Below are positions 7,240-61,682 of a stretch of DNA of 64,000 bases, in pieces. Position numbers and translations under genes: made by a program. Under the pieces are notes generated by a model that saw nothing but the letters and a program-made list of their open reading frames with translations, made no database searches and was not told the DNA's origin. The stretch is from the NCBI GenBank assembly GCA_030017475.1, contig JASEIO010000001.1:13495-77494 (forward strand), read 5' to 3'. Positions within the stretch are counted from its first letter, which is position 1. Each line of letters begins with the position of its first letter. The stretch comes from a bacterium (GTDB lineage: Bacteria > UBA9089 > JASEIO01).

Positions 7240-8032
7240 GATTTATAAATCTTCCTACCTTCCACCAGATGGTCCAAAAGTAATAATAGATCAAGAAGCG
7301 ATTGCTTCAACTGGAGGTCATACTGTTTTAGAGACATTAGATAATCGAATAAGGCAGGCACAAAAAAGACTTCTTAAGCTTAATGCAGAGATTGAAAGAA
7401 AAAAAGAGGAGGCACAAACATTAAAAGAGACAATAGTTCAAGAGGCGAATAAAAAGGCAGAAAAAGTTTTAGAAGAGGCAAAATGGAAAGGAGAGAAGGA
7501 AATCGAGCGTATTAAAAGACAGGCAGAAGAGGAAGGTAGAAAGAAAGGAGAGGAAGAGGGTTTTAGACAAGGGAGGCAGACAGTACAGAAACTTTTAAAT
7601 AAGCTTGAGGATATAATTACAGAGGCAAAGGTAAAAAGGAATGAGATTATTCGTTCTTCAGAGGCTGATATTATGTGTTTAGCGATTCTTATAGCAGAAA
7701 AGATTATTGGGTCTGAAATCTCAACAAATAGAGAGGTTGTTTTAAATAATGTAAAAAAGGCATTGAAAAAGATAACTGGAAAGGAAGAGATTGTAATTAG
7801 AGTGAATATAGATGATTTAGAATTGGTAAAAGGGCACAAGTCGGAGTTCTTAAATCAGGTTAGGACCTTACGAAAGATAGATTTTGAAGAGGATCCATCT
7901 ATAGAACGAGGAGGATGTAGAATATTGACTGACTTTGGTTCAGTTGATGCGAGACTTTCCACTCAATTGGATGAAATAAGGAAGAGTTTACTCAATGTAG
8001 CTGAACAGGTCAAAATAGAACCAGAGATATAG
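7232..8032 (+). CDS. fliH: flagellar assembly protein FliH (FliI ATPase regulator)
   Basis: 266 aa. Overlaps the fliG stop. Charged coiled-coil N-terminal half and FliH/YscL-like C-terminus. Placed between fliG and fliI. Confidence 0.7.
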   Translation: MNKIYKSSYLPPDGPKVIIDQEAIASTGGHTVLETLDNRIRQAQKRLLKLNAEIERKKEEAQTLKETIVQEANKKAEKVLEEAKWKGEKEIERIKRQAEEEGRKKGEEEGFRQGRQTVQKLLNKLEDIITEAKVKRNEIIRSSEADIMCLAILIAEKIIGSEISTNREVVLNNVKKALKKITGKEEIVIRVNIDDLELVKGHKSEFLNQVRTLRKIDFEEDPSIERGGCRILTDFGSVDARLSTQLDEIRKSLLNVAEQVKIEPEI

Positions 8033-8071
8033 ATACGGAGACTGGTTAACATATACAAATGGAGAATAGAG

Positions 8072-9385
8072 ATGGGGGTATATGTAGAGAGGTATAAAGA
8101 GGTGATAAATGGAGTGGACCCGATTAGATTATGCGGTCGAGTGACTAAAGTTATTGGATTAGTGATTGAAGCTGCGGGTCCTTCAGCTCGAATTGGAGAG
8201 ATCTGTCTGATTAGACTACCAGATGGATCGGAGATACGGGCAGAGGTTGTGGGATTTAGAGAAAACCGTGTTTTGTTAATGCCTATTGGTGGGATGGAAG
8301 GTATTGGTCCAGGATGTGAGGTAATTGCTACTTCACGGCCTTTAACTATAAAAGTAGGAGAAGGGTTACGTGGAAGGATATTGGATGGGATTGGAAATCC
8401 TATAGATGGGAAAGGAGAGATTGAGGCAAGTACGGAGTATTCAATCATCAATTTTCCTCCAGATCCATTAACCCGTAAAAGGGTGACCGAGCCATTATCT
8501 GTAGGAATAAGGGCAATCGATTCTACCTTGACCTTTGGTAAAGGGCAAAGGATGGGAATATTTTCTGGGTCTGGGGTTGGTAAGTCAACACTAATGGGAA
8601 TGATTGCAAGATATACCTCTGCCACGATTAATGTAATTGGACTAATCGGAGAAAGGGGAAGAGAAGTAAGGGAGTTTATTGAGAGGGATTTAGGAGAAGA
8701 AGGTTTGAAAAGGTCGGTTTTGGTAGTAGCTACAAATGATAAGCCCCCTCTAATTAGGTTAAGGGGTGCCTTTGTAACTATAACTATTGCTGAATATTTT
8801 AGGGATAAAGGGTATGATGTAATGTTAATGATGGATTCAATAACACGCTTTGCAAGGGCACAAAGAGAGGTAGGGTTAGCAATTGGAGAACCACCAGCAC
8901 AACGTGGGTTCACTCCTTCGGTGTTTGAGCTTTTACCGAAATTGCTTGAAAGGTCTGGAAATTCCGATAAAGGCTCAATCACTGGTATCTATACGATCTT
9001 AGTGGATGCCGATGATATGAATGAGCCAATTGCGGATAATGTAAGGGCAATCTTAGATGGACACATTGTATTGTCTCGGAATTTGGCATCTCGGAATCAT
9101 TATCCAGCTATTGATGTATTAGAGAGTGTATCTCGTTGTATGATCGATATTGTTTCTGAGCAACATGAAAAGTCCTCTCGGAGGTTAAGAGAGGTATTGG
9201 CAGTAATCCGCGATGCACAAGATCTAATTGATATTGGAGCTTATGTAAAGGGATCAAATCCTAAGATTGATTATGCTATTACCATGATTTCAAAGGTAAA
9301 TGAGTTTTTACGTCAAGGGATTCAAGAGAGATGTGATTATGAATCCACTATAAGTAGATTGTTAGAGATGTTCCCAGAGCAGTAA
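8072..9385 (+). CDS. fliI: flagellum-specific ATP synthase FliI
   Basis: 437 aa. Walker A GSGVGKST, Walker B MLMMDSITRFARAQRE; overall T3SS-ATPase/F1-beta-like architecture. Confidence 0.95.
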   Translation: MGVYVERYKEVINGVDPIRLCGRVTKVIGLVIEAAGPSARIGEICLIRLPDGSEIRAEVVGFRENRVLLMPIGGMEGIGPGCEVIATSRPLTIKVGEGLRGRILDGIGNPIDGKGEIEASTEYSIINFPPDPLTRKRVTEPLSVGIRAIDSTLTFGKGQRMGIFSGSGVGKSTLMGMIARYTSATINVIGLIGERGREVREFIERDLGEEGLKRSVLVVATNDKPPLIRLRGAFVTITIAEYFRDKGYDVMLMMDSITRFARAQREVGLAIGEPPAQRGFTPSVFELLPKLLERSGNSDKGSITGIYTILVDADDMNEPIADNVRAILDGHIVLSRNLASRNHYPAIDVLESVSRCMIDIVSEQHEKSSRRLREVLAVIRDAQDLIDIGAYVKGSNPKIDYAITMISKVNEFLRQGIQERCDYESTISRLLEMFPEQ

Positions 9386-9432
9386 TATTATTACAATGGA
9401 TTATATGGACTGCTGGGCGAAGCGAGGTTGAT

Positions 9433-22046: not shown

Positions 22047-23879
22047 GTGGACTTATATAATTCCAATTTGGCCTTATTAAGAAAGGTAGAACCAGGTTTG
22101 TTCTATCGCCTACTTCGGGTTTCGAGGAATACCAGCTCGCATTTAAAACAAAAATTATCTCTTCCTCTACTCCTTAATTTTGATTTGCGGAATGCAGATG
22201 TGGTTGTAGTATTAGGATTTGGAATGGGAAGGCATATCCCTCAGATTGTAGAAAGGATTTCCAGGAGTTGTTTTCTTTTGATAATTGAGAGCGATTTAGG
22301 GATTTTTAAAGAGGCTTTACACCACATAAATCTCATTCCTTTATTTTCAAATTGCCGTGTTTCTCTATCCGTTGGAGAAGATCCCTTCAATGCCACCCGG
22401 GTTAGATTGGATAATTATTATGGAGTGCTGACTATAGCTAAAATAAAGGTTATTGAGTATTCGCCATCTATAGAGGTTTCACCTACCTATTATCAAAAGG
22501 TAAGGGATAATCTAAAGGATGCAGCAGAGATGGCAGTTAGAAATATCGCCACTATGAGTAAATTTTCATCCATTTGGAGAGGGCATGTTTTAAAGAATAT
22601 TACAGCCATTATCAAAAATCCAGGAGCGAATACATTGTGGGGTAAGTTTAAAGATATACCTTCGATTATTGTAGCAGCGGGTCCCTCCTTGGACAAAAAT
22701 GTGCTTGAGTTAAAAAAGGCAAAAAACCGTGCCTTGATAGTTTGCGTGGATACAGCCTTACGTACCCTTTATAATAATGGAATCCGACCAGATTTAGTGG
22801 TGTCCATTGATGCCCAAGATTTTAATCTAAAGGATTTTGAAGGGGTAGAGTTAACCGAGGAGGTGCTTTTGGCGGTTCCAGTGGTTTATCCGCCAATTAT
22901 TGAACGCTTTAATAATAGAGTATTTATAACCAGTTATGGACATCCATTAGTGGATTGGTTAGAGAGATCTATTGGAAAGAAGGGATATACAAAGGTTGGT
23001 GGTAGTGTAGCTACAACCTGTTTTGATTTCTTAATAAGGGCAGGTGCTAACCCCATTATTTTTGTGGGACAAGATTTGGCTTTCACTGAAGGGAAGACCC
23101 ATACTGGGTGCTCATTTGAGGTAGAAGATATCTTCTTAAATTCAATCGATAAATTCTGCACCTTAGAGATGATGTATAGAGAAATGATAAAGGAGAGACA
23201 AGACCTAATCGAAGTTGAGGATATCTATGGTGGAAAGGTAGAGACCTCAAAGCAAATGCTTGGTTGGTTAAAATGGTTGGAATCTCAAGTAAAAGAATCA
23301 GGAAGAGTTTGTATTGATGCTACTGAAGGAGGAGCAAGAATAAAAGGGACCCGCGTCATGAGATTGAAGGATGCTATTAAATACTACTGCAAAAAAGAGG
23401 TTAACATAAAGGGGATTTTATATAATGCCATAGATCTTTATCGGCAACCCAGAACAGAGGCATTAGTGGAGGAAATGAAAAGGTTAATTCAGGAATGTTA
23501 CTCTTTAGAAGAGATTGGGAAGAAAGGCAAAGAGACAGCAAGTAAGTTGATAGATATCCTATTTAGTGAAAAAAGGACAACGGATGTAACCAGTCAGTTA
23601 TTCTCTCAAATGGGTTCTTTTTATCAACAGATTTTTGGAAACCACTATCTTATGGAACTTTTTAGATGGTCGATTGAACCTTTAATTGCTGAGGTAGATA
23701 GGTTAAAGCAGGGTAAATCTCCTATGGTAGTGGCTAAGAGATGTGAGCACTTTTTCCAGGAGATTATGAAAATTATCCGAGAGATAATTTTACAGTTAGA
23801 AGAGGCAAAGGTTCAATTGGAAGATTTGGAATTACAAAAAGGCATGAGAAAACTTCATACATTTTGGCTGGAAGCCTGA
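22047..23879 (+). CDS. motility accessory factor (Maf) family protein, DUF115/MptE-like putative glycosyltransferase
   Basis: 610 aa. N-terminus MDLYNSNLALLRKVEPGLFYRL resembles Campylobacter Maf N-termini. DUF115 core VVVLGFGMGRHIPQIVE and IIVAAGPSLDKNVLELKKAKNRALIVCVDTALRTLYNNGIRPDLVVSIDAQ. Alpha-helical C-terminal half. Confidence 0.7.
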   Translation: MDLYNSNLALLRKVEPGLFYRLLRVSRNTSSHLKQKLSLPLLLNFDLRNADVVVVLGFGMGRHIPQIVERISRSCFLLIIESDLGIFKEALHHINLIPLFSNCRVSLSVGEDPFNATRVRLDNYYGVLTIAKIKVIEYSPSIEVSPTYYQKVRDNLKDAAEMAVRNIATMSKFSSIWRGHVLKNITAIIKNPGANTLWGKFKDIPSIIVAAGPSLDKNVLELKKAKNRALIVCVDTALRTLYNNGIRPDLVVSIDAQDFNLKDFEGVELTEEVLLAVPVVYPPIIERFNNRVFITSYGHPLVDWLERSIGKKGYTKVGGSVATTCFDFLIRAGANPIIFVGQDLAFTEGKTHTGCSFEVEDIFLNSIDKFCTLEMMYREMIKERQDLIEVEDIYGGKVETSKQMLGWLKWLESQVKESGRVCIDATEGGARIKGTRVMRLKDAIKYYCKKEVNIKGILYNAIDLYRQPRTEALVEEMKRLIQECYSLEEIGKKGKETASKLIDILFSEKRTTDVTSQLFSQMGSFYQQIFGNHYLMELFRWSIEPLIAEVDRLKQGKSPMVVAKRCEHFFQEIMKIIREIILQLEEAKVQLEDLELQKGMRKLHTFWLEA

Positions 23880-49475: not shown

Positions 49476-50342
49476 ATGGATGAGGTAAAGATAGGGATTA
49501 TCGGTGGGAGTGGATTATATAAAATGGAAGGTTTGAAGGAGATTAAGCTACTCAAAGTATCTACACCTTTTGGTTCGCCTTCGGATGAGATAGTTATTGG
49601 AGAGATAGAAGGAGAAAGGATTGCTTTTTTACCAAGACATGGAAGAGGTCATCGGGTGCTCCCAGGAGAAGTAAACTCCCTTGCTAATATATATGCCTTA
49701 AAAAGTTTAGGTGTTGAAAGAATAATTGGAGTATCAGCTGTTGGGAGTTTAAAAGGGGAATTACGGCCTTTAGATATAGTTATTCCTGATCAACTGTTTG
49801 ATCATACAAAAGGCAGACCTCATACCTTTTTTGGGAATGGAATAGTTGTCCATATTGAATTTGCTGATCCTTACTGCCCTGATTTAAATAAATTTTTGAT
49901 AGAAATATGTATAACTTTAGGTTATAGAGTACATTCTAAAGGGGTATATGTTTGCATTGAAGGTCCACAGTTCTCTACCCGCGCAGAATCGCAAGTATTT
50001 AGAAGACTTGGAATGGATATAATTGGGATGACTAACATGCCAGAGGCAAAGCTTGCTCGAGAGGCAGAAATTTGTTATTCCACAATCGCTATAGTTACAG
50101 ACTATGACGTTTGGCATGCTAAATCAAGTGATGTAACAGTAGATTTGGTAATTAAAAATTTATTGGAGGGTGTTAAAAAGGCGAAAGAGATAATAAAGAT
50201 GCTTGTTCCACTTGTTCGAAATAAAAAAAGGGAGTGTAAATGTGCTACCGCTTTGAAAGATGCTATAATTACGAATCCTAAACTAATTTCTGAGGAGAGA
50301 AAGAGGCAACTTAATTTGATAATTGGAAGATACATTAAATAA
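49476..50342 (+). CDS. mtnP: S-methyl-5'-thioadenosine phosphorylase
   Basis: 288 aa PNP/MTAP family (IGIIGGSGLY, GMTNMPEAKLAREAEICYSTIA). Confidence 0.85.
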   Translation: MDEVKIGIIGGSGLYKMEGLKEIKLLKVSTPFGSPSDEIVIGEIEGERIAFLPRHGRGHRVLPGEVNSLANIYALKSLGVERIIGVSAVGSLKGELRPLDIVIPDQLFDHTKGRPHTFFGNGIVVHIEFADPYCPDLNKFLIEICITLGYRVHSKGVYVCIEGPQFSTRAESQVFRRLGMDIIGMTNMPEAKLAREAEICYSTIAIVTDYDVWHAKSSDVTVDLVIKNLLEGVKKAKEIIKMLVPLVRNKKRECKCATALKDAIITNPKLISEERKRQLNLIIGRYIK

Positions 50343-50394
50343 TCCTTTTCTTTTAAAAAAGAAAAAGCGACACAAAAAGAACACTGGCCAGAAG

Positions 50395-51420
50395 ATGTTG
50401 ATTCGAGAAAGGTTTGAGCAATTTGAGAAAGAGACCTTGTCTCCCTTTGCCACTTTATCCTCTCGCTCGAAAGGAAGAAGATACGAGGAGGAAGAGTGTA
50501 TTATTAGAACCTGTTTTCAGAGAGATAGAGATAGGATTGTTCATTCTAAATCCTTCCGTCAATTAAAACACAAAACCCAGGTCTTTTTGATTCCAATAAA
50601 AGAGTCTATTCGTACCCGTCTTACACACACCATTGAAGTTTCCCAGATTGCTAGGACAATTGCCAAGGCATTACTGCTAAATGAAGATTTAACAGAGGCT
50701 ATCTCTTTAGGCCATGATTTAGGACATCCTCCATTTGGACATATAGGAGAAGTTGCCTTGAATGGAATATATAAGAATGGCTTTAAGCATTCAGAACAAT
50801 CGCTACGTATTGTGGAAATTTTGGAAAAGGAAGGACAGGGTTTAAACTTGACCTATGAGGTAAAGGATGGGATTTTAAAGCACTCTCGTGGATCCCAAAG
50901 TCTATTTATTGATGAAGGAAGATCTATGACCTTAGAAGGTGATATAGTTAGATTAGCAGATTCAATTGCCTATATAAATCATGATATTGAAGATGCGATA
51001 AATGCTGGAATTATTGAAATGAAGGATCTCCCAAGGGAAGCAATCCGAGTCTTGGGAGAGAGATCATCCGAGCGTATTGATCGAATGGTTAAAGATGTAA
51101 TTGAAACAAGCTATGGGAAAGATGTAATATCAATGAGTAGAGAAATCATGGATTTTACAGATGAATTGAGGAATTATCTTTATAGCTGCGTTTATACAAG
51201 AAATGAAATTCAAAAAGAGGCCCAGAAAGCAAGAAGGGTTTTAGAGGAGCTATTCAACTATTTTTGCAAAAATCCCGAAGAGGTTTTGGAGAGTTTACCT
51301 TTTCTTTCGCCTGAAGAGGGAATAGATCGAATAATCTGTGACTACTTGGCAGGGATGAGTGATCAGGAGGCATTGTTGAGGTATGAGGAGATATTTTTGC
51401 CAAGGCCAGGGGTATTTTAA
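50395..51420 (+). CDS. HD-domain dGTP triphosphohydrolase-like protein
   Basis: About 341 aa. HD motifs RLTHTIEVSQIAR and HDLGHPPFGH (dGTPase-like family). ATG 50395 chosen; the ORF track's upstream extension overlaps mtnP. Confidence 0.8.
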   Translation: MLIRERFEQFEKETLSPFATLSSRSKGRRYEEEECIIRTCFQRDRDRIVHSKSFRQLKHKTQVFLIPIKESIRTRLTHTIEVSQIARTIAKALLLNEDLTEAISLGHDLGHPPFGHIGEVALNGIYKNGFKHSEQSLRIVEILEKEGQGLNLTYEVKDGILKHSRGSQSLFIDEGRSMTLEGDIVRLADSIAYINHDIEDAINAGIIEMKDLPREAIRVLGERSSERIDRMVKDVIETSYGKDVISMSREIMDFTDELRNYLYSCVYTRNEIQKEAQKARRVLEELFNYFCKNPEEVLESLPFLSPEEGIDRIICDYLAGMSDQEALLRYEEIFLPRPGVF

Positions 51421-51430
51421 AGTAATAATT

Positions 51431-51535
51431 ACAAAAATTGTTACAAGAATTATTGGATGACAAATTTTGTAATTGCGATTGACAATTATTGTCAAACCAG
51501 GACAAGAGAGGTTTGGTAGTGAGTACAAGATTTGT
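51431..51535 (+). promoter_or_regulatory. array of four ACAA-N3-TTGT inverted-repeat operator-like sites upstream of the STAND-TPR gene
   Basis: ACAAaaaTTGT (51431-41), ACAAattTTGT (51460-70), TTGACAATtATTGTCAA (51479-95, perfect 8-bp arms) and ACAAgatTTGT (51525-35, overlapping the gene start). Confidence 0.4.
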
Positions 51536-51546
51536 TAGGTTTTATA

Positions 51547-53733
51547 ATGATAGGGATTTTTCTCGTTATCGTAGTAATTGCACCTATCCTTTACTTTATC
51601 TTTAGCTATAGAAAGAAGGATGAAAGAGGGAAGGTTTCTACGGATTTACCACTTCCATTTAGAATCTCATCCCTTGGTTCTGAGCCTATTTTGGATCCGC
51701 CCAATTTTATAGGAAGGGAGGATGAGCTTTTTAAATTAAAAGAAAACCTTAGGTACAAAAGTGTAATAATCATTAAGGGTAAAGAAGGGGTTGGAAAGAC
51801 AAGTTTAGGCGCAAAATTTTGCAAGGAGCTCTCTTCAGATTATTCGACCTTTTGGTATACAGCCTGTGAAGATACAGATATTGAAGGTATATTTCTAAAA
51901 CTTAATCAATTTCTTGAGCAAAAAGGGGATAGATTTTTTTCCCAAATCTTTATTCTCCCCGAAATAGAAATAAAGGGTAAAATTGATTTGTTAATAAAGA
52001 GGTTAGAAAAGAAAAGATATATTTTATTTATTGATAATTACCATTTGATAATGGATAATAGGGTATTTCATATGATAGATCGTTTTTCTAAGGAACTAAA
52101 TGTTTCCAAGGTAGTTATAATTACTTCAGAAAAGCTTACCTTAGCCCAGGACAAAATTTTTGAGTTGGAACTTCAGGGGTTTAATCTGAATGATTCAATC
52201 CTATTTTTAAAAACTTGCGGGTTAGAAAAAGGCGATTTAGAAAAGATATCTAACAAGTTTCAAGGTAATCCTTTAGCCTTAAAGTTAATAGCCTCGGAAA
52301 AAGACGCAAGGTCAGTTTTTGATGAGGTAAGCGGAAGAAATATTAGAGATATAATAGATATAAGATATAATAGGTTAAATGAAGACGAGAGGAATTTAAT
52401 CTCAAGGTTATCTGTATTTAATGAAGAGGTGCCATTTGAGGCTTGCAAATATCTGTATAAAAGGACAAATTTGCTTAAGATTATAAAAGATCTGGAATCT
52501 TTGGCTTTAATCACTGAACATAATGGAAATTATTCATTACATTCAGAAATAAGAGACCTTTGTTATGAGAAACTTTTTCAAAAAGAAAGATATCATAAAG
52601 CAGCAGCGAAATATTACGGAGATGCGAATGCGGCTTTAAAGGAAAAAAGAATGGAGGCAGTTCTTGAAGAATCTCACCATTATTTTAAAGCAGAGGATTA
52701 TTCTTCTTCATTAGATCTTTTAATCTCTAATTTAAACCAAATGGTTTTAGGTGGGTATTCGTCTCTTCTTTATGCCCGGTTACTAAAATTTAAGAGGAGT
52801 AACCTTACAGACAAAGAGTGGTTAAAAGTTTCTCAAGCCAAAGGCGAGATTAATAATTTCCGGGGGTTTTTTGATGAGGCTATTTCAAATTTTACTGAGA
52901 TGTTACGGATAGCAGAAAATGGTAAATCAAGAAACGACCTTTCTCTTTCATATCATGGGCTGGGAAGTGCTTACCGTTTAAAGGGCGATTTGAATCAAGC
53001 CATTTCTTATTATGAAAGGAGTCTGCGTGTTTTTGAAGAAGAGGAGCCTATTAAACGAGAAAGTCCTGTCTATAGACAGAGTTTTGGTTCAGTTTATAAA
53101 GGTAGAGGAAGATGGGATGAGGGAATAAGGTACTACATTGGTTATCGTAAACGCGATTTTGATCTGCACGAGGAAAGTAATATAATTGCTATAATTTATG
53201 CAGACTTGGGGCTGATTTATCTTAAAAAGGGAGAGTTTGAGCAGGCGATTTCATGTTTTGAGAAAGGATTGGATTTTTCTTTAAAAGAGGAGGATTTAAT
53301 AGGTAAGGTAATAAGTATTACAGATTTAGGTGTTGCCTATCATCTAATGGAGGAATATGATAGGGCTATATCTTATTATGAGGAGAGTTTATCTTTATGG
53401 AAAGAAATAGGGAATGTAAATAGAACTGGCTCTATTTATAATAACCTGGGAACTATTTATCAGAATAAAAGAGAGATGGAGCAGGCAATCAAAAATTTTG
53501 AAAATAGTTTGGAGATATGGAGAAGAATTGGAAATTTATTCGAAGAAGCAGAAGTTTTAAGATCCCTTGGCGCAATTTACGAAAAGATAGGGGATTATCT
53601 CAAGGCAATCGATTATTACAAGAAAAGTATTGAGATATTTGAAAATATTGGAAGAGAAGATGAACTTCCATCTCTTTATGAAAAGATAAATATAGCCACT
53701 GAGATATTGGAGAAGGAAAGGAAGAAGGGATAA
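51547..53733 (+). CDS. membrane-anchored STAND/NB-ARC-type NTPase with C-terminal TPR repeats
   Basis: N-terminal TM helix IGIFLVIVVIAPILYFIF. P-loop GKEGVGKTSL with hhhhD Walker B ILFIDNYH. At least five TPR units (LGSAYRLKGDLNQAISYYERSL, LGLIYLKKGEFEQAISCFEKGL, LGVAYHLMEEYDRAISYYEESL, LGTIYQNKREMEQAIKNFENSL, LGAIYEKIGDYLKAIDYYKKSI). The ORF track starts at TTG 51532. Confidence 0.7.
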   Translation: MIGIFLVIVVIAPILYFIFSYRKKDERGKVSTDLPLPFRISSLGSEPILDPPNFIGREDELFKLKENLRYKSVIIIKGKEGVGKTSLGAKFCKELSSDYSTFWYTACEDTDIEGIFLKLNQFLEQKGDRFFSQIFILPEIEIKGKIDLLIKRLEKKRYILFIDNYHLIMDNRVFHMIDRFSKELNVSKVVIITSEKLTLAQDKIFELELQGFNLNDSILFLKTCGLEKGDLEKISNKFQGNPLALKLIASEKDARSVFDEVSGRNIRDIIDIRYNRLNEDERNLISRLSVFNEEVPFEACKYLYKRTNLLKIIKDLESLALITEHNGNYSLHSEIRDLCYEKLFQKERYHKAAAKYYGDANAALKEKRMEAVLEESHHYFKAEDYSSSLDLLISNLNQMVLGGYSSLLYARLLKFKRSNLTDKEWLKVSQAKGEINNFRGFFDEAISNFTEMLRIAENGKSRNDLSLSYHGLGSAYRLKGDLNQAISYYERSLRVFEEEEPIKRESPVYRQSFGSVYKGRGRWDEGIRYYIGYRKRDFDLHEESNIIAIIYADLGLIYLKKGEFEQAISCFEKGLDFSLKEEDLIGKVISITDLGVAYHLMEEYDRAISYYEESLSLWKEIGNVNRTGSIYNNLGTIYQNKREMEQAIKNFENSLEIWRRIGNLFEEAEVLRSLGAIYEKIGDYLKAIDYYKKSIEIFENIGREDELPSLYEKINIATEILEKERKKG

Positions 53734-53775: not shown

Positions 53776-55536
53776 ATGGTTTATGATCCAACGAAACTCA
53801 AGGATTGGCAGATTGCTGAAGAGGCAGAAAAGAATATGCCAACACCTTCGGAGTGGAGAGAAAGGTTAGGACTTGAAAGGGATGAAATCATTCCTTATGG
53901 AAGGATATGCAAGCTCGATTTTCTAAAGATTATTGAGCGGTTAAAAGACCGGCCCGACGGCAAATATATAGATGTTACTGCTATTACCCCAACCCCTTTT
54001 GGTGAGGGAAAGACTACAACTACTATTGGCTTGATAGAAGGCTTAGGTAAAAGGGGTAAGAATGTAGGTGGCTGCATACGCCAACCCTCTGGTGGTCCTA
54101 CTATGAATATCAAGGGTACAGCTGCAGGCGGTGGTAATGCCCTGCTCATTCCAATGACTGAGTTTTCTTTAGGATTAACCGGTGATATTGATGCCATTAC
54201 CAATGCGCACAATTTGGCTATGGTAGCTTTGACCGCAAGACTTCAGCATGAGGCAAACTATTCAGATGAAGAACTTGCAAAACGTAACCTGAAACGACTA
54301 AACATTGATCCAAGAAGGGTAGAGATGGGTTGGGTACTTGACCTCTGTGCCCAAGCCTTACGCAACATCATTATCGGTATTGGTGGTAAGATGGATGGTT
54401 TCATGATGGAGTCAAGTTTTGGTATTACAGTCAGTTCTGAGCTTATGGCCATTCTTTCTATTGTTCGAGATTTAAAGGATTTGCGGGAGCGTTTGGGTAA
54501 GATCATAGTAGCTTATGACAAGAAGGGGAAGCCCATAACTACTTCTGATTTAGAAGTCGCTGGTGCTATGTGTGCCTGGATGAGAAATACAATCAATCCC
54601 ACATTGATATCGACAGTGGAGTATCAACCATGTATGGTCCATGCAGGTCCATTTGCAAATATTGCCGTTGGTCAGTCATCCATCATAGGGGATCGCATTG
54701 GTTTGAAGATATTCGACTACCACGTAACAGAGAGTGGATTCGGCGCAGATATAGGTTTTGAGAAATTCTGGAATGTGAAATGTCGCTTTAGTGGACTCGT
54801 TCCCAATGCTGTTGTAATCGTTGCTACAATAAGGGCATTGAAGATGCACGGCGGAGGACCCGAGGTAGTGCCTGGCAGACCTCTTCCGCAGGAATACCAG
54901 GAAAAGAATTTGGGGTTGATTGATAAAGGGGTTTTGAATCTCCTGCATCACATAAATAATGTGAAGAAATCAGGGGCTAAACCTGTTGTTTGTATCAATT
55001 GTTTCCCTACGGATACCGACGAAGAGATTGCTTTGGTTTGTAAGTATGTTGAGGAGACAGGAACTCGATGTGTACTCTCCAAGCACTGGCTTGAAGGTGG
55101 AGAGGGTGCCCTTGAACTGGCAGATGCAGTCATTGATGCATGTAACGAAGAGGTTGATTTTAAATACCTCTATCCATTGGAGATGCCGCTTCGGGAGAGA
55201 GTCGATCTGATTGCAAAAGAGATATATGGTGCAGATGGAGTCTCTTGGACACCTGAGGCAGAGGCAAAGGCCAAGGAGTTAGAGAGAAATCCTACGATGC
55301 AGGACTTCTCTACAATGATGGTCAAGACTCACTTAAGCCTTACCCATGACCCGACAATAAAAGGAACACCCAAGGGCTGGATTCTGCCAATACGTGATGT
55401 CTTAGTATTTGCAGGTGCAAAGTTCCTCTGCCCTTGTGCAGGTACTATCAAACTGATGCCAGGAACGGGTTCTGACCCAGCATTCAGAAGGGTGGATGTG
55501 GATGTGGATACAGGGAAGGTTACAGGTCTTTTCTGA
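53776..55536 (+). CDS. fhs: formate--tetrahydrofolate ligase
   Basis: About 586 aa. FTHFS motifs [15 protein letters not shown] and [16 protein letters not shown] 53776 follows AGGAGG. Confidence 0.9.
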
Positions 55537-55550
55537 GAAAGCTCTGGGCA

Positions 55551-57398
55551 ATGGATTCCAAAATTTGTCAAGAGATGAGGTATACTGTTCATTTTTATCC
55601 TGATGATGTGAAGGTAGTTGTCTATGCGGGAACTACTGTACTTCAAGCAGCAATTGATGCATCAATTTATATCCCCTCTTCCTGTGGTGGAGAAGGTCTC
55701 TGTGGAAGATGTAAAATAATTATTGATAAACAAGAGGTTTTAGCCTGCAGGACTCAGGTAGATACCGATTTAGAAGTAAGAATCCCTCCCGTTTTAGATA
55801 GAAAGAGATTGGCTAAAAAAAGGGTTGTCTTACCTATAAAAAAACAAGGGCTAAATCCCATTACCAAGAAATTATACCTCGAGCTTCCTTTCCCAAAACC
55901 TGGGGATAATATAGATGACCTTTATAGGTTAATCCAGGGGATTAAAAAAGAATGCGGTATTTCCCCCTCTATTGAATTTCCAATAATTCAAAAACTTTCC
56001 AAAACCCTTAGAGAGGAAAGGTTTAAGGTTACTGTTAGTTTGCTTGATGTAAATGAGAAGCCTACTATTGTAAATGTAGAACCAGGAGATACAAGATCTA
56101 ATCACTATTCAATAGCCTTAGATATTGGTACTACTTCCATCTATGCTCAATTGTTAGATTTAGAGGAAGGTAAGGTGTTGGCTGAAACCTCCTGTTTTAA
56201 TCCTCAAATCGTTTGTGGAGAAGATATTATTTCAAGGATTGTGTATTCTTTAAAACCAGGGAATTTAAAGAGGTTACAAGAGTTAGTGGTAAAAGCCATA
56301 AATGAAATAGTGGAGGATTTAACTCATGTTGCCAAAATTGAGAAGTCAGATATTAATCAAATAGTAGTAGCTGGAAATACCACTATGATTCATCTATTAT
56401 TGGGGATAGATCCAAGGTATATTAGAGAATCCCCTTATACCCCAACCTGTAATTTTATTCCTCCTGTCAGGGCGAAGGAGATAGGGATAGATCTTCCTCC
56501 TTATGCCTATATCTACATCATACCTTCAATAGCGAGTTTCATAGGAGGGGATATCACCTCAGGGATTTTAGCCTCAAAGTTATACGAAACGCAAGAACTT
56601 TCCCTTTATATCGATATTGGAACAAATGGAGAGATAGTTTTGGGGAATAGAGAGATGCTCGTAGCATGTTCTTGTTCTGCTGGTCCTGCCTTTGAAGGTG
56701 GAGGAGTAAGTTGCGGTACATTTGCTACCTTTGGAGCAATTGAGAGGGTAAGAATTGATAGGGATTATGAGCCAGAGATAGAGACTATTGGAGGAGTAAA
56801 ACCAAAAGGCATCTGTGGATCTGGATTGATTGATACCTTGGCAGAACTTTTAATGAATAAAATCATTTCTCAAAATGGTAAGTTTAATGAGGATCTGAAA
56901 ACAAAAAGGGTGAGGAAAAAGGAAGGTGGTTTTGAATACGTAATCTGTTGGAAGGATGAAAATGACTTAGACCATGATATTGTTTTGACTGAAGTAGATA
57001 TTGATAATTTGATGAGAGCAAAGGCAGCAATTTATGCTGGGATCTCTTTATTGCTTGAAAAGCTTGAATTAACCCTTTCGGATATTTCAAAGATTATAAT
57101 TTCAGGAAATTTTGGACAATATATTGATCTAAGAAATGCCCATATAATTGGGTTATTTCCAGAGGTATCCCTTGATAGATTTGAATATATTGGAAATGGC
57201 TCACTTTTAGGGGCAAGATTATGCTCCTTTTCTAAAGATATGCTGAATCAGACAAGGGAGATAGCGAATTCTGTTACCAATATAGAGCTGTCGGATAATC
57301 CACGGTTTTATGACGAGTATCTACAGGCATTATTTTTACCACATACCAATATGGAGGAATTTCCAGGAGTCAGCGAAAAACTAAAAAAGAGGGCATAA
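55551..57398 (+). CDS. reductive activator of corrinoid Fe-S protein (RACo-like: 2Fe-2S ferredoxin domain plus ASKHA ATPase domain)
   Basis: 615 aa. N-terminal plant-type ferredoxin fold with CGGEGLCGRCK ... C. C-terminal actin-like ATPase (DIGTTS, DIGTNGE, GSGL). Sits within the fhs/folD/acsC/acsE cluster. Confidence 0.7.
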   Translation: MDSKICQEMRYTVHFYPDDVKVVVYAGTTVLQAAIDASIYIPSSCGGEGLCGRCKIIIDKQEVLACRTQVDTDLEVRIPPVLDRKRLAKKRVVLPIKKQGLNPITKKLYLELPFPKPGDNIDDLYRLIQGIKKECGISPSIEFPIIQKLSKTLREERFKVTVSLLDVNEKPTIVNVEPGDTRSNHYSIALDIGTTSIYAQLLDLEEGKVLAETSCFNPQIVCGEDIISRIVYSLKPGNLKRLQELVVKAINEIVEDLTHVAKIEKSDINQIVVAGNTTMIHLLLGIDPRYIRESPYTPTCNFIPPVRAKEIGIDLPPYAYIYIIPSIASFIGGDITSGILASKLYETQELSLYIDIGTNGEIVLGNREMLVACSCSAGPAFEGGGVSCGTFATFGAIERVRIDRDYEPEIETIGGVKPKGICGSGLIDTLAELLMNKIISQNGKFNEDLKTKRVRKKEGGFEYVICWKDENDLDHDIVLTEVDIDNLMRAKAAIYAGISLLLEKLELTLSDISKIIISGNFGQYIDLRNAHIIGLFPEVSLDRFEYIGNGSLLGARLCSFSKDMLNQTREIANSVTNIELSDNPRFYDEYLQALFLPHTNMEEFPGVSEKLKKRA

Positions 57399-58276
57399 TG
57401 GGTGCAAAAATTATAAGTGGCGAGGAAATCTCTGAGGAGATTAGGAAAGGGTTGCGAGAGGAGATTAACAGGCTAAAAGAAAGAGGAGTGGTTCCAGGAC
57501 TTGCCACTCTCCTTGTTGGGGAAGATCCAGCTTCCCAGGTTTATGTTAGATCGAAAAGACGAGCTTGTGAGAAAGTTGGTATTCATACAGAACAGTATAC
57601 CTTTCCTGCTACGATTAAAGAAAAAGAGTTGTTAGGTAAGATTTCAGAACTTAACGAGAGGCATGACATAAATGGAATCTTGGTTCAACTTCCACTGCCT
57701 CCACAAATTGATTCTAATAGGGTCCTACTGTCTATTTCACCTGATAAGGATGTGGATGGATTTCATCCTATAAATGTAGGGAGGTATATGAGTATGAAAT
57801 ATTTCGATCAAATGATTGAGGAGGAATTATTCCTTCCATGTACTCCTCATGGGATTATTGAGATATTGAAAAGGACAGGTGTAGAATTAAAAGGGGCGGA
57901 GGCTGTAGTTGTAGGTCGGTCAAATATTGTAGGAAAACCAGTAGCATTGTTATTACTTGCCAATAATGCCACAGTAACTGTTTGCCATACTGGTACTAAA
58001 GATCTCGGAGAGGTCTGTAGAAGAGCTGATGTATTAATTGCTGCTATTGGCAGACCAAAGTTTATTCGAGGGGAGATGGTAAAGCAGGGTGCTGTGGTTA
58101 TTGATGTAGGAGTGAATAGAACCGAAGAAGGTTTGGTTGGTGATGTTTCGTTCCTGGAAGTTAAGGAAAAGGCATCCGCTATTACACCAGTTCCAGGTGG
58201 AGTGGGTCCAATGACTGTTACAATGCTTTTGGTAAATACAGTAAAGGCAGCTAAAAGACAGGAGAGTGGTGGGTAA
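57398..58276 (+). CDS. folD: bifunctional methylene-THF dehydrogenase / methenyl-THF cyclohydrolase
   Basis: 292 aa. GKPVALLL NAD(P)-binding motif; PVPGGVGPMT cyclohydrolase motif. Confidence 0.9.
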   Translation: MGAKIISGEEISEEIRKGLREEINRLKERGVVPGLATLLVGEDPASQVYVRSKRRACEKVGIHTEQYTFPATIKEKELLGKISELNERHDINGILVQLPLPPQIDSNRVLLSISPDKDVDGFHPINVGRYMSMKYFDQMIEEELFLPCTPHGIIEILKRTGVELKGAEAVVVGRSNIVGKPVALLLLANNATVTVCHTGTKDLGEVCRRADVLIAAIGRPKFIRGEMVKQGAVVIDVGVNRTEEGLVGDVSFLEVKEKASAITPVPGGVGPMTVTMLLVNTVKAAKRQESGG

Positions 58277-59454
58277 TGGAAGAGATTATGAGGGAAGAAG
58301 AGTTTTATAAAGATGCAGTTAAACCTATTAGAGAAGGAGAGATAATCGAGGGTGTAGTGGTCAAGATAGATCCAGAATGTATATTTGTTGATATTGGGTG
58401 TAAATCTGAAGGGATTGTACCTTTAAATGAATCAGGTGGAAAAAGAAAAGATATAAAGGTGGGAGATAGGATTTCGGTGTTTGTATTAAAGACAGAAGAT
58501 AGGGTAGTCCTTTCTAAAAAAAGGGCAGATTTAGAAAAAAGCTGGAGTATGGTAGAGCGTGCTTTTGAAACAGGTGAGATAATTGAGGCACGTGTTTTAA
58601 AGGTAGTAAAAGGTGGTTTATTAATTTCGCTTGGTTCTATCTTCGGTTTTTTACCTGCAGCACATTTGGAAAAGGGATTTGTCAAGGATCTTAAAAGGTA
58701 TGTAAATAAGTTATTAAGATTAAAGGTCTTGGAAGTAAACCGAAGACAGAATAGGGTTATTCTTTCACAAAAGGTAGTTTTGGAAGAGGAAGATAGGAAA
58801 AGAAAGGAGGCTTTATTAGATAGCTTAAGCGAGGGAGAGATTCGAAAAGGTAGTGTTTCAGGTATTACCTCTTTTGGTGTTTTTGTTGATTTAGGTGGGA
58901 TTGATGGCTTGGTTAGGAAGACGGAGTTATCATATAATAAGGTAAATCATCCAAAGGAGGTTATATCCAAAGGAGCGGAGGTGGATGTAAAGGTATTAAA
59001 ATTTAATCGTAAAGAAGGGAAGATATCTTTATCTATAAAACAAGCCTTGCCTGACCCTTGGGATTCAGTGGATAAGAAGTTTTCATTAGGGCAGATAGTT
59101 AAAGGAAAAGTGGTCAATATGACTAAAGCATGTGTATTTGTGGAACTTGAACCTGGAATCGATGGCTTGATCCCTTTGCGTGAGTTAGGGAAAAAAGGCA
59201 TAGGTTCCCCCCGTGATGTAGTAAAGATTGGGGATGAGGTAAGTGCTAAAATTTTAGAGATAGTTAAAGAGTCAAAAAGGATCATTTTAAGTATTCGTAG
59301 AATCTTTGATGATGAGGAAAGAAATGATATTAGTCGCTACCTTAATGCCCAAAAGAGGGAAAGACTTACATTGGGTGAAATAATTAAAGAGAAATTGGAG
59401 AATAGTGGGAAGAAGATAATACAGGAGGCGGTTAATGGGGTTAACCGGGATTGA
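58276..59454 (+). CDS. S1 RNA-binding domain protein (short four-S1-repeat ribosomal protein S1 homologue)
   Basis: 392 aa with four tandem S1 domains (G.VV.I....F.D.G..EG..P...). Size and layout resemble the roughly 380-aa S1 homologue of Firmicutes. Confidence 0.75.
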   Translation: MEEIMREEEFYKDAVKPIREGEIIEGVVVKIDPECIFVDIGCKSEGIVPLNESGGKRKDIKVGDRISVFVLKTEDRVVLSKKRADLEKSWSMVERAFETGEIIEARVLKVVKGGLLISLGSIFGFLPAAHLEKGFVKDLKRYVNKLLRLKVLEVNRRQNRVILSQKVVLEEEDRKRKEALLDSLSEGEIRKGSVSGITSFGVFVDLGGIDGLVRKTELSYNKVNHPKEVISKGAEVDVKVLKFNRKEGKISLSIKQALPDPWDSVDKKFSLGQIVKGKVVNMTKACVFVELEPGIDGLIPLRELGKKGIGSPRDVVKIGDEVSAKILEIVKESKRIILSIRRIFDDEERNDISRYLNAQKRERLTLGEIIKEKLENSGKKIIQEAVNGVNRD

Positions 59455-60787
59455 AATCTTTAAGAAGTTACCCAAAACAAATTGTGGTGAATGTGGGGTT
59501 CCTACCTGTCTTGCCTTTGCCATGAAACTTTCGCAAGGGAAGGCAGATTTAGAGGCTTGTCCCCATGTTTCAGCCAGTGTTAAAATGGAGCTTTCTGAGG
59601 CATCTCTACCTCCAATTCGTGGAGTTAGAATCGGTATTGAAGAATCTGCTTTAAAGATTGGAGAGGAAACTGTTCTTTTCCGTCATGACAAACGTTTTGA
59701 AAATCCCCCTGGTTTTGCTATATTAATTAGCGATTCAATGAAGAGGGAAGAGATTGAGGATAAGGTAAGTCAATTGAATACAGTGAAATTTGAAAGGGTT
59801 GGCTTAGAATTAAAACCAGAATTGGTGGCCATTAAGTGTGGATCAAAGGATAAAACCCAGTTTTCTTCTGTGGTAAAAACCATAATAGATAGAACAAAGA
59901 AGGGGATTATTTTAATTGAAGAGGATGTTGATATCTTGCAAGAGGCAGTGAAAATATGTAAAGAGAGAAGGCCCCTTTTATATGCTGCAACTGCGGCTAA
60001 TTATGAAACTATGGGGCGATTAGCCAAATCCAATAATTTGCCATTGTCGGTAAAAGGGCGTGATTTAGAGGAATTGGCTGAAATTACAAAGAGGCTTATG
60101 GATATGGGTATCCTGGATATGGTGATTGATCCGGGTTCAAATAATATAAAGCGTGCAGTGGAAGATCAAACCTTTATTAGACGTTTAGCATTGGAAAAAA
60201 CCTATAGACCCCTTGGTTTTCCAACAATTACCTTTCCTTGTGAGATGACAGATAATCCTATGAAAGAGATGCTTTACGCCTCAATCTTAGTTTCAAAATA
60301 CGCTGGGATTATTGTCTTATCTGACCTAAGTTCTCATTATATGTTTCCACTTCTTGTTTATAGAATGAATATTTATACGGATCCACAGCGTCCAATGACT
60401 ATGGAACAAGGTATTTATGAGATAAATGGTTCCCGAGAAGATTCACCAGTGATTATAACCACAAATTTCTCTTTGACCTATTTTATTGTGTCATCAGAAG
60501 TTGAGTCAAGTAAAGTTCCAACATGGCTTTTGGTTATGGACACAGAAGGTTTGTCTGTATTAACAAGTTGGGCAGCAGGTAAATTCGTTCCTGAGCTAAT
60601 TGCATCTTTTGTGAAAAAGGTAGGTATAGGAAATAGGGTGAGCCACCGGAAGCTTATTATCCCAGGATATGTAGCACAAATTAAAGGGGAATTGGAAGAG
60701 GAATTGGGGGGTGAATGGGAGGTCGTGGTCGGTTGTAGGGAGGCAGGAGATATCCCCGCCTTCCTTCAAAGATACGCCACAGCTTAA
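59435..60787 (+). CDS. acsC: corrinoid iron-sulfur protein large subunit (AcsC/CdhE-like)
   Basis: 450 aa. N-terminal 4Fe-4S motif CGECGVPTCLAFAMKLSQGKADLEACP. TIM-barrel and corrinoid-binding C-terminal parts consistent with CFeSP gamma subunit. Confidence 0.8.
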   Translation: MGLTGIEIFKKLPKTNCGECGVPTCLAFAMKLSQGKADLEACPHVSASVKMELSEASLPPIRGVRIGIEESALKIGEETVLFRHDKRFENPPGFAILISDSMKREEIEDKVSQLNTVKFERVGLELKPELVAIKCGSKDKTQFSSVVKTIIDRTKKGIILIEEDVDILQEAVKICKERRPLLYAATAANYETMGRLAKSNNLPLSVKGRDLEELAEITKRLMDMGILDMVIDPGSNNIKRAVEDQTFIRRLALEKTYRPLGFPTITFPCEMTDNPMKEMLYASILVSKYAGIIVLSDLSSHYMFPLLVYRMNIYTDPQRPMTMEQGIYEINGSREDSPVIITTNFSLTYFIVSSEVESSKVPTWLLVMDTEGLSVLTSWAAGKFVPELIASFVKKVGIGNRVSHRKLIIPGYVAQIKGELEEELGGEWEVVVGCREAGDIPAFLQRYATA

Positions 60788-60857
60788 TTTTCTGAGGAAA
60801 AAAGATTTTCTGATAAAGGTCTATGATTAGAAAACCGGTATGGAAGGTAGGGAGAAG

Positions 60858-61682
60858 ATGATTTTAATTGGAGAATCAATTAATGTGATGAGGAAAGATA
60901 TTTCGCAGGCGATAAAAGAGAGGGATAAGAAACCAATTCAAGATCTGGCATTACACCAGGTTGAAGCCGGAGCAGATTACCTTGACTTAAATATTGGTCC
61001 GTCGAGGAAAGAGGGTCCGGAAATAATGGAATGGATGGTTAATATTGTTCAGGATGTAGTAGATGTACCTTTATCTCTTGATACTACTAATTATTTAGCA
61101 ATTGAAGCGGGATTAAAGGTGGTTAAGAAAAGACCTATTATCAATTCCGTGTCTTCGCAAAAGGAAAGGTTGAAAAACACCCTTCCTTTAGCCAAGAAAT
61201 ATAACGTTCCATTTGTGGCTCTTTTATTGTCAGATGAAGGGATTCCGAGAGATGTCTCGGAGCGGGCAAATGTCTTATTTGAAATCCTATCCAGTTCTCA
61301 AGCTTTAGGAATTCCGAACGAGGACGTTTGGGTTGATCCTATTGTGCTTCCAGTATCAGCAGATCAAAAACAAATGGTTGAATTTGTGGAATTTTTAAAA
61401 GTCATTCCTGATTTAGTGGGAGAAGAATTAAAGACAATCTGTGGTCTTTCAAATGTTTCCAATGGTTCTCCAAAAGAATTGCGTAGTATCTTAAATTGTA
61501 CTTATCTCACAATGTTGCAGGAAGCCGGTTTATATTCAGCTATTGTGGATGTTTTAGATGAAAACATACTTAACACTGCCAAAGGGAAAATCTTAGATTC
61601 CTTTTCTTCACTCGATGTAGAGAAAACGAGATCGGTTTTAAAAAATGAGGTATTATATTGCCATTCCTGGCTTGAACTGTAG
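60858..61682 (+). CDS. acsE: methyltetrahydrofolate:corrinoid/iron-sulfur protein methyltransferase (MeTr, pterin-binding)
   Basis: About 274 aa. MILIGESINVMRKDISQAIKERDKKP ... LDLNIGP matches the MeTr/pterin-binding family. ATG 60858 follows GGGAG. Confidence 0.8.
   Translation: MILIGESINVMRKDISQAIKERDKKPIQDLALHQVEAGADYLDLNIGPSRKEGPEIMEWMVNIVQDVVDVPLSLDTTNYLAIEAGLKVVKKRPIINSVSSQKERLKNTLPLAKKYNVPFVALLLSDEGIPRDVSERANVLFEILSSSQALGIPNEDVWVDPIVLPVSADQKQMVEFVEFLKVIPDLVGEELKTICGLSNVSNGSPKELRSILNCTYLTMLQEAGLYSAIVDVLDENILNTAKGKILDSFSSLDVEKTRSVLKNEVLYCHSWLEL

Follow-up and report, generated by a model that had tools for sequence, protein, structure and literature searches.

Introduction

Switch proteins of the STAND (signal-transducing ATPases that have numerous domains) and NLR type play a central part in the immunity and cell death of organisms from every domain of life, with the bacterial ones now being rapidly characterised, and nearly all of the STAND proteins that have been studied carry either an enzymatic or a DNA-binding output domain. 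The subject of the present work is a STAND gene located at positions 51547-53733 of a 64-kb stretch of DNA from a bacterium of the GTDB lineage UBA9089 (contig JASEIO010000001.1 of assembly GCA_030017475.1), and this whole stretch is referred to here as the window. The encoded protein combines a STAND switch and a tetratricopeptide repeat (TPR) sensor with a predicted transmembrane (TM) helix at its N-terminus. The reading that we prefer, tentatively and with slightly less than even confidence, is that it is a membrane-tethered hub without an effector of its own, which would act by recruiting or sequestering proteins that are encoded elsewhere.

The closest protein of solved structure is PH0952 of Pyrococcus horikoshii, a STAND protein with a TPR sensor, which belongs to a clade lying between the Apaf-1 and MalT clades and whose crystal structure (6MFV) captures an ADP-bound resting state, where the nucleotide-binding domain (NBD) is clamped by the arm and the sensor and residue H382 of the winged-helix domain (WHD) is located in the ADP site (Lisa et al. 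2019, PMC6468293). When a predicted model of our protein was compared with the PDB by Foldseek, PH0952 was retrieved first (E 2e-20 over 686 columns, TM-scores 0.67/0.75), followed by MalT, and Avs3 and CED-4 reached a TMq of 0.24 only. PH0952 was also the best match in sequence searches of the PDB (E 5e-24 at full length) and the sole match to aa 1-420 (E 4e-19). Judged by this best solved match, and not by phylogeny, the protein most resembles the PH0952-like TPR-STAND group. The domains follow the same order in both proteins, viz. NBD, helical domain (HD), WHD, arm, TPRs and cap, and the GR-x-x-E, Walker A, Walker B and GxP motifs as well as a WHD histidine are common to the two. However, whereas the PH0952-like group of proteins carry an ArsR-type winged helix-turn-helix (wHTH) at the N-terminus, our protein has the TM helix and a disordered linker there; the sensor-I motif reads ITTR in PH0952 but ITSE here, PH0952 has six TPRs plus a cap whereas our model has seven plus a cap, and the two sequences are only ~20% identical.

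A number of other systems show a more partial likeness. MalT of Escherichia coli and the LAL proteins have a LuxR-type helix-turn-helix (HTH) at the C-terminus, whereas our protein has no HTH; further, MalT is soluble and, as indicated in the reference list of PMC6468293, it is held only transiently at the membrane by MalK, whereas our protein has its own predicted TM anchor. The Avs/AVAST and bacterial NLR-like proteins share with it a tripartite layout, in which a STAND NTPase stands between a module at the N-terminus and a repeat sensor at the C-terminus, and TM modules are listed for the Avs7-type proteins. The AP-ATPase/NB-ARC proteins (Apaf-1, CED-4 and plant NLRs, e.g. NRC2 and ZAR1) have WD40 or leucine-rich repeat sensors in contrast to the TPRs seen here, and our protein is without a CARD, coiled-coil or TIR domain, lacks the sensor-I arginine, and has a constitutive TM segment rather than an amphipathic helix that is released. 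Lastly, Tmn/YobI and KAP (e.g. PifA) are likewise P-loop NTPases positioned at the membrane, with sensing and output in one polypeptide. However, these are unrelated NTPase families, with TM helices inserted within the P-loop domain in YobI and four TM helices outside of it in KAP, whereas in our protein a single TM helix precedes a canonical nucleotide-binding oligomerisation domain (NOD). TM modules in STAND proteins have already been catalogued in the literature; in the full-text literature that was searched, no characterised single-TM NOD-TPR protein of the PH0952-like clade was found.

A complete STAND switch behind a predicted N-terminal membrane helix

A preliminary description of this locus, made from the DNA alone, had placed the gene at 51547-53733 and had quoted its P-loop and Walker B motifs, and both the coordinates and the motifs (GKEGVGKT and ILFID-N) match the open reading frame (ORF) exactly. 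The ATG is at 51547, with an alternative in-frame TTG at 51532 in the same ORF, and the protein is 100% identical to NCBI MDI6703117.1, a record entitled 'MAG: tetratricopeptide repeat protein [bacterium]' that derives from a 101-kb contig. The parts of the gene and of its product are as follows.

51547-53733, + strand: complete coding sequence of the membrane-anchored TPR-STAND protein, 728 aa (from the ORF list; TAA stop at 53731-53733)
51547-51609, + strand: N-terminal TM helix, aa 1-21 (MIGIFLVIVVIAPILYFIFSY), uniformly hydrophobic and anchor-like
51610-51711, + strand: flexible linker, aa 22-55 (RKKDERGKVSTDLPLPFRISSLGSEPILDPPNFIG), at first basic and then Pro/Ser-rich, with a predicted local confidence (pLDDT) of <50 for aa 21-45
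51712-52182, + strand: NBD, about aa 56-212, an alpha/beta domain with five beta-strands alternating with helices (from Pfam, the model and the PH0952 alignment)
51778-51801, + strand: Walker A or P-loop GKEGVGKT, aa 78-85
52021-52038, + strand: Walker B ILFID-N, aa 159-164, with Asn at the second acidic position
52111-52134, + strand: sensor-I strand VVIITSEK, aa 189-196, with the arginine of 'TTR/SR' replaced by Ser194
52183-52332, + strand: HD, about aa 213-262 (helices at 214-260 in the model)
52333-52581, + strand: WHD, about aa 263-345 (266-341 in the model), with the 'MHD'-like YSLHSEIRD
52582-52806, + strand: helical arm, about aa 346-420 (helices at 346-413 in the model)
52807-53730, + strand: TPR sensor, aa 421-728, with seven TPR helix pairs (422-700) and a capping helix (704-727) in the model

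Pfam searches matched the protein to ATPase_2 (aa 54-242, 34.0 bits against a cut-off of 33.2), NB-ARC (aa 64-261, 32.5 bits against 23.5) and TPR_12 (E 4e-52, in five stretches), with TPR_MalT falling below its cut-off (44.8 vs 45). A structure was predicted by AlphaFold2 from an alignment of 55 family sequences (mean pLDDT 88.3, pTM 0.83). The P-loop NBD, HD and WHD make up a NOD of the STAND superfamily, and the model superimposes on the NODs of MalT, PH0952 and Apaf-1. The protein hence has a complete STAND switch of the PH0952/MalT/Apaf-1 type, and the architecture proposed in the preliminary description, viz. a TM helix, an NB-ARC-like NTPase, a helical linker and five or more TPRs, is borne out by both Pfam and the model. 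The subtype question that it had referred to structure prediction is answered by an NB-ARC-like STAND NOD, of the type of the three proteins just named. The last element of the chain is the TPR capping helix, which extends to aa 727. Neither a recognisable enzymatic nor a DNA-binding effector domain is present, as was proposed earlier, with no HTH found at a Pfam E<=1 and no LuxR/GerE match.

The conservation of the motifs was counted in the same 55-sequence alignment. The NBD carries GR-x-x-E (R57 and E60), Walker A, Walker B and the sensor-I position, and in Walker A no variation is seen at G81, G83 and K84, whilst 51/55 sequences retain T85. D163 of Walker B is found in 54/55; at the second acidic position (164), 35/55 sequences have D and 14/55 have N, so that the Asn seen in our protein is a common variant. 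PH0952 and 42/55 relatives have the sensor-I arginine, in place of which our protein has Ser194, its closest relative (P0002) has Gln and a more distant TM-type relative (P0085) has Ser. Because the sensor-I arginine is absent and Walker B ends in Asn, the small clade to which the protein belongs may have an atypical nucleotide cycle, in which ATP is bound but poorly hydrolysed or sensed, if the nearby Lys196 does not compensate. The HD contains the GxP motif QGNPLAL (aa 239-245; G240 in 51/55 and P242 in 53/55), which is equivalent to the 'GLPL' of NB-ARC proteins. H332 of the WHD is conserved in 48/55 and is aligned with the histidine in the YFVH of PH0952; this aligned histidine is taken to be H382 of that protein, and H332 would then be a contact of the ADP.

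The strength of selection was estimated from one codon-level pairwise comparison, between our gene and that encoding P0002, a 79% identical protein found on the 2.5-kb Logan contig L001. The overall ratio of nonsynonymous to synonymous divergence (dN/dS) is 0.21, at a dS of 0.52, on account of which the gene is clearly functional and under purifying selection. With this ratio, the strong E-values of the domains and the confidence of the model, the observation is well outside what chance would produce. The TPR region is the most conserved part (dN/dS 0.165, 83% identity), the ratio being 0.20 in NBD-HD, 0.20 in the WHD and 0.24 in the arm; it rises to 0.41 in the linker (71% identity) and to about 1 in the TM helix (48% identity over 21 codons).

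The predicted topology and the character of the helix

The first 21 residues form the sole strongly hydrophobic segment of the protein (Kyte-Doolittle 19-mer mean 2.95), and residues 2-20 are helical in the model. No charge precedes this helix, whereas RKKDERGK follows directly after it and five K/R residues are present in the next 15 aa. One hydrophobic helix of ~20 residues and an asymmetry of flanking charge are the features from which a single-pass (bitopic) protein is predicted by sequence. By the positive-inside rule, the basic residues flanking a TM helix mark its cytoplasmic side, and since the K/R cluster follows the helix, the N-terminus is predicted to lie outside and the NTPase and TPRs in the cytoplasm.

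The mean Eisenberg hydrophobicity of the helix is 0.92 and its hydrophobic moment is 0.13; the values range over 0.64-0.92 and 0.06-0.22, respectively, and a polar face is lacking. The helix appears to be constrained for hydrophobicity and not for sequence. Due to this free drift of its sequence and the low hydrophobic moment, it looks like a plain anchor, which argues for this role rather than for that of a specific pore-lining element. Amyloid-signalling motifs occur at the N-terminus of some NB-ARC/TPR NLR-like proteins, and a motif of this kind was also considered for this segment. It was rejected, as the segment is a uniformly hydrophobic helix of the TM type and there is no adjacent partner gene that could have a matching motif.

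Distribution of the family and its exchangeable N-terminal slot

When ~5.8 billion proteins were searched for homologues by word index, using either the full protein or its aa 1-420, one close relative only was recovered, viz. P0002, and none was present among the GTDB species representatives. Beyond this relative, the full-length search says little concerning orthology, because matches driven by the TPRs dominate it. An exhaustive phmmer search with aa 1-420 against 1.84 billion representatives yielded 1,895 proteins with a threshold of E<=1e-3, or 501 with one of E<=1e-10, among which P0085 (32% identity) alone aligns from the N-terminus and has the TM helix in common with our protein. A 10-sequence alignment of TM-type proteins, used as a query, recovered a single additional protein of this type, and locus scans with the P0001/P0002/P0085 alignment gave partial relatives only (26-41%), on a Nostoc contig and in a Cloacimonadota metagenome-assembled genome (MAG) among the GTDB genomes and on one JGI contig among the metagenomes. 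No relatives were found on phages or viral contigs, and the plasmid search gave only distant NB-ARC proteins of cyanobacterial megaplasmids. The protein, which is real and was correctly recognised, is an uncharacterised and rare variant within a large family that is already known, and it comes from a poorly sampled lineage. The preliminary description had contrasted its proposal with a MalT-like housekeeping orthologue that has a hidden HTH and a syntenic position throughout the lineage; what is seen is a protein lacking any HTH and with one close relative, though this relative shares the dGTPase gene as its upstream neighbour.

The classes of N-termini were counted among the 150 best family representatives. 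About 120 of these have an N-terminal domain of 45-400 aa, up to 17 have no N-terminal extension (some of them possibly being truncated ORFs), and ~10 (~7%) belong to the TM-only class, in which one or two TM helices and a linker precede the NOD. The N-terminal domains that were sampled include TIR, DUF4062, CHAT, Lon_C, HD-CE, Trypsin_2, Schlafen AlbA_2, DUF4365 and ArsR/MarR-type wHTH, that is to say both effectors typical of conflict systems (TIR, CHAT, protease or nuclease) and DNA-binding domains. The TM-type members are scattered through the family and their close NOD neighbours carry other N-termini: the NOD of the TM-type protein P0149 is 67% identical to that of P0216, which has an N-terminal DUF4365, and that of P0184, also TM-type, is 62% identical to that of P0114, which has a wHTH. 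As judged from these sequences, the TM helix occupies a swappable N-terminal slot and has been gained repeatedly, and the NOD family is a mixed one, containing both regulator-like members (as PH0952) and conflict-type members. Such a mixture fits the results of a 2026 survey, whose STAND phylogeny comprises 589 clades and in which defence and non-defence clades of STAND proteins are interspersed (PMC13581612).

An operator-like array upstream of the gene

The 126-nt spacer between the dGTPase gene and our gene contains four palindromes of the form ACAA-N3-TTGT, which are located as follows.

51427-51535, no strand assigned: operator-like array of four ACAA-N3-TTGT palindromes
51431-51441, 51460-51470, 51482-51492 and 51525-51535, no strand assigned: the individual palindromes

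The third of these is nested in a longer perfect palindrome, TTGACAAT-T-ATTGTCAA, at 51479-51495, and the last one ends 11 nt before the ATG. In the 64 kb of the window this motif is found 5 times against 1.07 expected, with 4 of the 5 occurrences in this spacer, and none of 100 shuffles reached five. All four palindromes are kept upstream of the gene on L001 despite intervening indels; a core block is identical at 66 of 67 positions between the two loci, whereas synonymous sites differ at 37% (pS 0.37; P about 1e-12). Based on these features, the array is a putative multi-site operator for a repressor. A known riboswitch or leader is unsupported, as no Rfam family was matched in the intergenic region, and scans for sigma-70 promoters and terminators gave nothing above the shuffled background. 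No Fur-family or other small regulator is present among the window ORFs of at least 150 aa. The 7-1-7 form of the repeat, T[GT]ACAAW-N-WTTGT[ACT]A, has what we take to be a resemblance to Fur-family boxes; it serves as a lead only, with repressors of the Fur/PerR/Zur family or other dimeric ones as candidates.

The preferred reading and the evidence that bears on it

In the reading that we prefer, the protein would be a single-pass protein of the inner membrane, with its N-terminus outside and its bulk in the cytoplasm. At rest the NOD would be closed around ADP, with H332 of the WHD touching the nucleotide, and the arm and the TPR array would clamp the NBD. A ligand would bind to the TPRs or the arm, and it is probably a protein or a peptide, since the TPR_12 repeats are canonical. 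Release of the clamp would then permit the exchange of ADP for ATP and the formation of a head-to-tail oligomer, which would be kept at the inner face of the membrane by flexible tethers of ~35 residues. Both the nucleotide cycle and the oligomerisation are carried over here by analogy from the established STAND paradigm. Given a TM helix that resembles a plain anchor and the lack of any enzymatic or DNA-binding domain, the output would most likely be induced proximity at the membrane, viz. the recruitment or sequestration of other proteins acting in trans, and not an activity that the polypeptide has of its own. Expression of the gene is probably repressed by a palindrome-binding repressor acting on the four conserved operators, one of which is next to the start codon. 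Together with the topology and the nature of the ligand, these steps are what we infer from the features described above, and a hub without an effector is favoured because the helix is anchor-like and many relatives are without an N-terminal domain.

Several points weigh against this reading. Most of the relatives with identifiable N-terminal domains carry effectors of the conflict type, and as the N-terminal slot is the output module in that paradigm, this favours the TM helix itself as the effector. Partner protein, ligand and regulator were none of them found, and action via proteins encoded elsewhere is therefore an argument from absence. The arginine of sensor-I is missing (S194) and the second acidic residue of Walker B is Asn, the membrane insertion and topology are predictions from hydrophobicity and charge only, and the dN/dS estimate for the TM helix is based on 21 codons in one pair of sequences.

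The foremost alternative follows from the first of these points. It holds that the protein is an Avs-like abortive-infection sensor whose TM helix is the effector: a protein of a phage or other invader, bound to the TPRs, would trigger oligomerisation, and the resulting bundle of TM helices would perturb or permeabilise the membrane, leading to dormancy or death, much as is done by the funnel of N-terminal helices in the ZAR1 resistosome of plants or by holins with a single TM helix, of which it would be a functional analogue. We regard this as somewhat unlikely. The helix does occupy the slot where NODs that are 62-67% identical carry DUF4365 or a wHTH and where other relatives have TIR, DUF4062, CHAT, Lon_C, HD-CE, Trypsin_2 or Schlafen AlbA_2; the literature lists TM segments among the N-terminal modules of Avs7-sensor proteins and describes some effectors of bacterial STAND proteins as pore-forming membrane proteins. 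The patchy and rare distribution of the protein is of the expected kind, tight repression through four operators would suit a toxic gene, and its GC content (0.333) is the lowest among the 51 window ORFs (mean 0.383, standard deviation 0.022; ~2.3 standard deviations below). This low GC could reflect either a foreign origin or a bias in composition, the protein being rich in L, E, I and K, and it provides a weak hint of horizontal acquisition and no more, because the codon usage is ordinary (a KL divergence of 0.11, which is mid-range in the window) and only short imperfect matches at chance level were seen when direct repeats flanking the gene were sought as an insertion scar.

However, a uniformly hydrophobic helix of low moment, without an evident pore-lining face and almost unconstrained in sequence, is hard to square with a specific pore. 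None of the Avs or other defence-NTPase models of PADLOC-DB v2 matched the protein, the matches obtained being to generic TPR models and weakly to mad8 (E 4e-5), and the similarity of its structure to that of Avs3 is low, as noted above. No defence, phage or mobile genes occur in the window (among its 51 ORFs with a minimum of 150 aa), nor are any evident in the surroundings of the TM-type relatives, and the lack of relatives on phages or viral contigs points in the same direction. In addition, its sensor of ~300 aa is below the 400-aa cut-off that was used for the clustering of defence-associated sensors in the 2026 survey (PMC13581612). As for the Avs-like antiviral role that was raised with reserve in the preliminary description, it may be favoured by the effectors typical of conflict systems that relatives of the NOD carry, whereas neither the PADLOC models nor the gene content of the window lend it support. 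A broader form of the idea, in which the TM-anchored NOD-TPR proteins would be a distinct and recurrent class of immune or cell-death receptors in prokaryotes, with ligand-induced bundling of TM helices under a STAND ring as their output in the place of an enzymatic effector, and with a dedicated four-operator repressor in this lineage, is in our estimate rather improbable.

Neighbouring genes and the explanations that involve them

The genes on the two sides of the STAND gene are of the housekeeping type, as the preliminary description had also supposed for both flanks. The immediate neighbours are given below, followed by the order of the genes in the window as annotated by Pfam on the 51 ORFs that reach 150 aa or more, every one of which is on the + strand.

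50395-51420 (within the ORF 50323-51420), + strand: dGTP triphosphohydrolase of the housekeeping type (NCBIfam NF002327)
53776-55536, + strand: formate-tetrahydrofolate ligase, fhs (Pfam FTHFS, E 4.5e-219)
Window order, first part: xerC-hslVU, then a Bacillus-like fla/che operon ending with flhF, flhG and sigD
Window order, second part: tig-clpP-clpX, serA, leuCD, purA and two tRNAs
Window order, third part: PASTA protein, rpe, argC, argJ, mtnA, MTAP and the dGTPase, then the STAND gene
Window order, fourth part: fhs, RACo, folD, an S1 protein, CdhD, a pterin-binding protein and PilM

The window is an unbroken co-directional stretch of housekeeping genes, in which the STAND gene is stand-alone. 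It is followed after a 42-nt spacer, with an AAGGAGG ribosome-binding site and no predicted terminator, by fhs. On L001 a dGTPase gene is again found upstream (its C-terminus reading AKYEEIFLPRP), and in the 97 nt downstream of the gene on this contig a start of fhs was not seen. Neither a conserved partner gene nor a defence island was present in nine loci of TM-type relatives (L001 and L005-L013 scanned); the 'GT4-conflict' labels that Pfam gives to glycosyltransferases at L006 and L007 overlap with generic GT4 matches and were accorded no weight. At the locus (L006) of P0085, the nearest TM-type relative outside of the lineage, the gene, which likewise looks like a single accessory gene in a housekeeping stretch, immediately precedes gap-pgk and shares their strand (7408-12277), and a divergent tRNA-Arg(TCT) lies ~270 nt away at 7062-7136, with CutA1 and RseC on that side.

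This neighbourhood bears on a second alternative, according to which the protein would be a non-immune regulator tied to its neighbours, sensing a metabolite or protein related to dNTPs or to one-carbon metabolism and controlling these genes from the membrane, e.g. by sequestering a regulator (cf. MalK-MalT). Among proteins of solved structure, the nearest relatives are the transcription regulators PH0952 and MalT, and P0110, the nearest NOD neighbour without a TM helix, has an ArsR-type wHTH. The dGTPase-STAND adjacency is kept in the 79% identical relative, the short spacer with fhs lacks a terminator, P0085 is likewise placed directly before a metabolic gene pair on its own strand, and the TPR sensor is strongly conserved. 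However, the protein itself has no DNA-binding domain; synteny with dgt is the default expectation at a dS of ~0.5 and is not informative; the fhs start is missing from the sequence downstream of the L001 gene; the other TM-type relatives have no neighbour in common; and within the window the palindrome array is confined to the one spacer, so that no shared regulon is visible. We consider this explanation to be distinctly unlikely.

That the STAND protein and the adjacent dGTPase could form a two-gene defence system, in which the former would sense infection and activate the latter for the depletion of nucleotides, is very improbable. The two genes are adjacent in both of the known genomes, the dGTPase model of PADLOC matches the neighbour (E 2.5e-77), and anti-phage dGTPases do exist as an NCBIfam category. 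However, the neighbour scores 494 bits with the housekeeping equivalog NF002327 (cut-off 393) and only 204 bits with the anti-phage model NF041026, whose cut-off of 400 it does not pass, which is in accordance with the housekeeping appearance attributed to it earlier; the PADLOC match is what is expected from general homology, a regulated spacer of 126 nt separates the two genes, and a dGTPase neighbour is absent at the other TM-type relatives. Lastly, that the gene is a decaying remnant, or that it encodes an exported TPR protein with a signal peptide at its N-terminus, is scarcely credible, for although sensor-I has lost its arginine, Walker B its second acidic residue and the protein lacks an effector domain, the ORF of 728 codons is intact, its cytoplasmic domains show dN/dS values of 0.165-0.24 and a confidently predicted fold, the hydrophobic segment begins at residue 2 with no basic n-region and has its K/R residues after and not before it, and a NOD that depends on ATP would have no meaningful role outside of the cytoplasm.

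Other features of the window

As all of the annotated genes are on the + strand and each of the 2-kb bins shows a positive GC skew (0.04-0.42), the window represents a co-directional stretch of the leading strand. The succession of xerC-hslV-hslU and the fla/che operon ending in sigD mirrors the codV-clpQ-clpY-fla/che layout of Bacillus, which is a hint of a lineage resembling the Firmicutes. Two members of the flagellar region may be noted. The first is a giant hook-like protein of 1,494 aa (12576-17060), with matches to FlgE-type D1, D2 and C-terminal rod segments only near its ends (aa 102-163, 1220-1373 and 1448-1492) and ~1,000 intervening residues without a Pfam match. The second is a 610-aa MptE-like (PF01973) protein at 22047-23879, an unusual occupant of the flagellar export operon between fliO and fliP, the 3' end of whose gene overlaps the start of the fliP ORF by 16 nt. 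Downstream of the STAND gene, the region 53776-61682 holds a cluster for the methyl branch of the Wood-Ljungdahl pathway and for corrinoid proteins (fhs, the corrinoid activator RACo, folD, a CdhD-like protein and a pterin-binding protein), in which a protein with four S1 domains (58276-59454) is embedded.

Significance

A STAND protein that has a membrane anchor as its sole extra module raises the question of how an oligomerising STAND protein signals without an effector. If the bundle of helices should itself be the output, then the protein would amount to a 'resistosome' of minimal form that acts on the membrane, and would correspond in bacteria to the funnel of the plant resistosomes. If, on the other hand, it acts by the recruitment of partners, as in the reading that we prefer, it would represent a type of hub, localised at the membrane, of which no example has so far been described in this clade of proteins.

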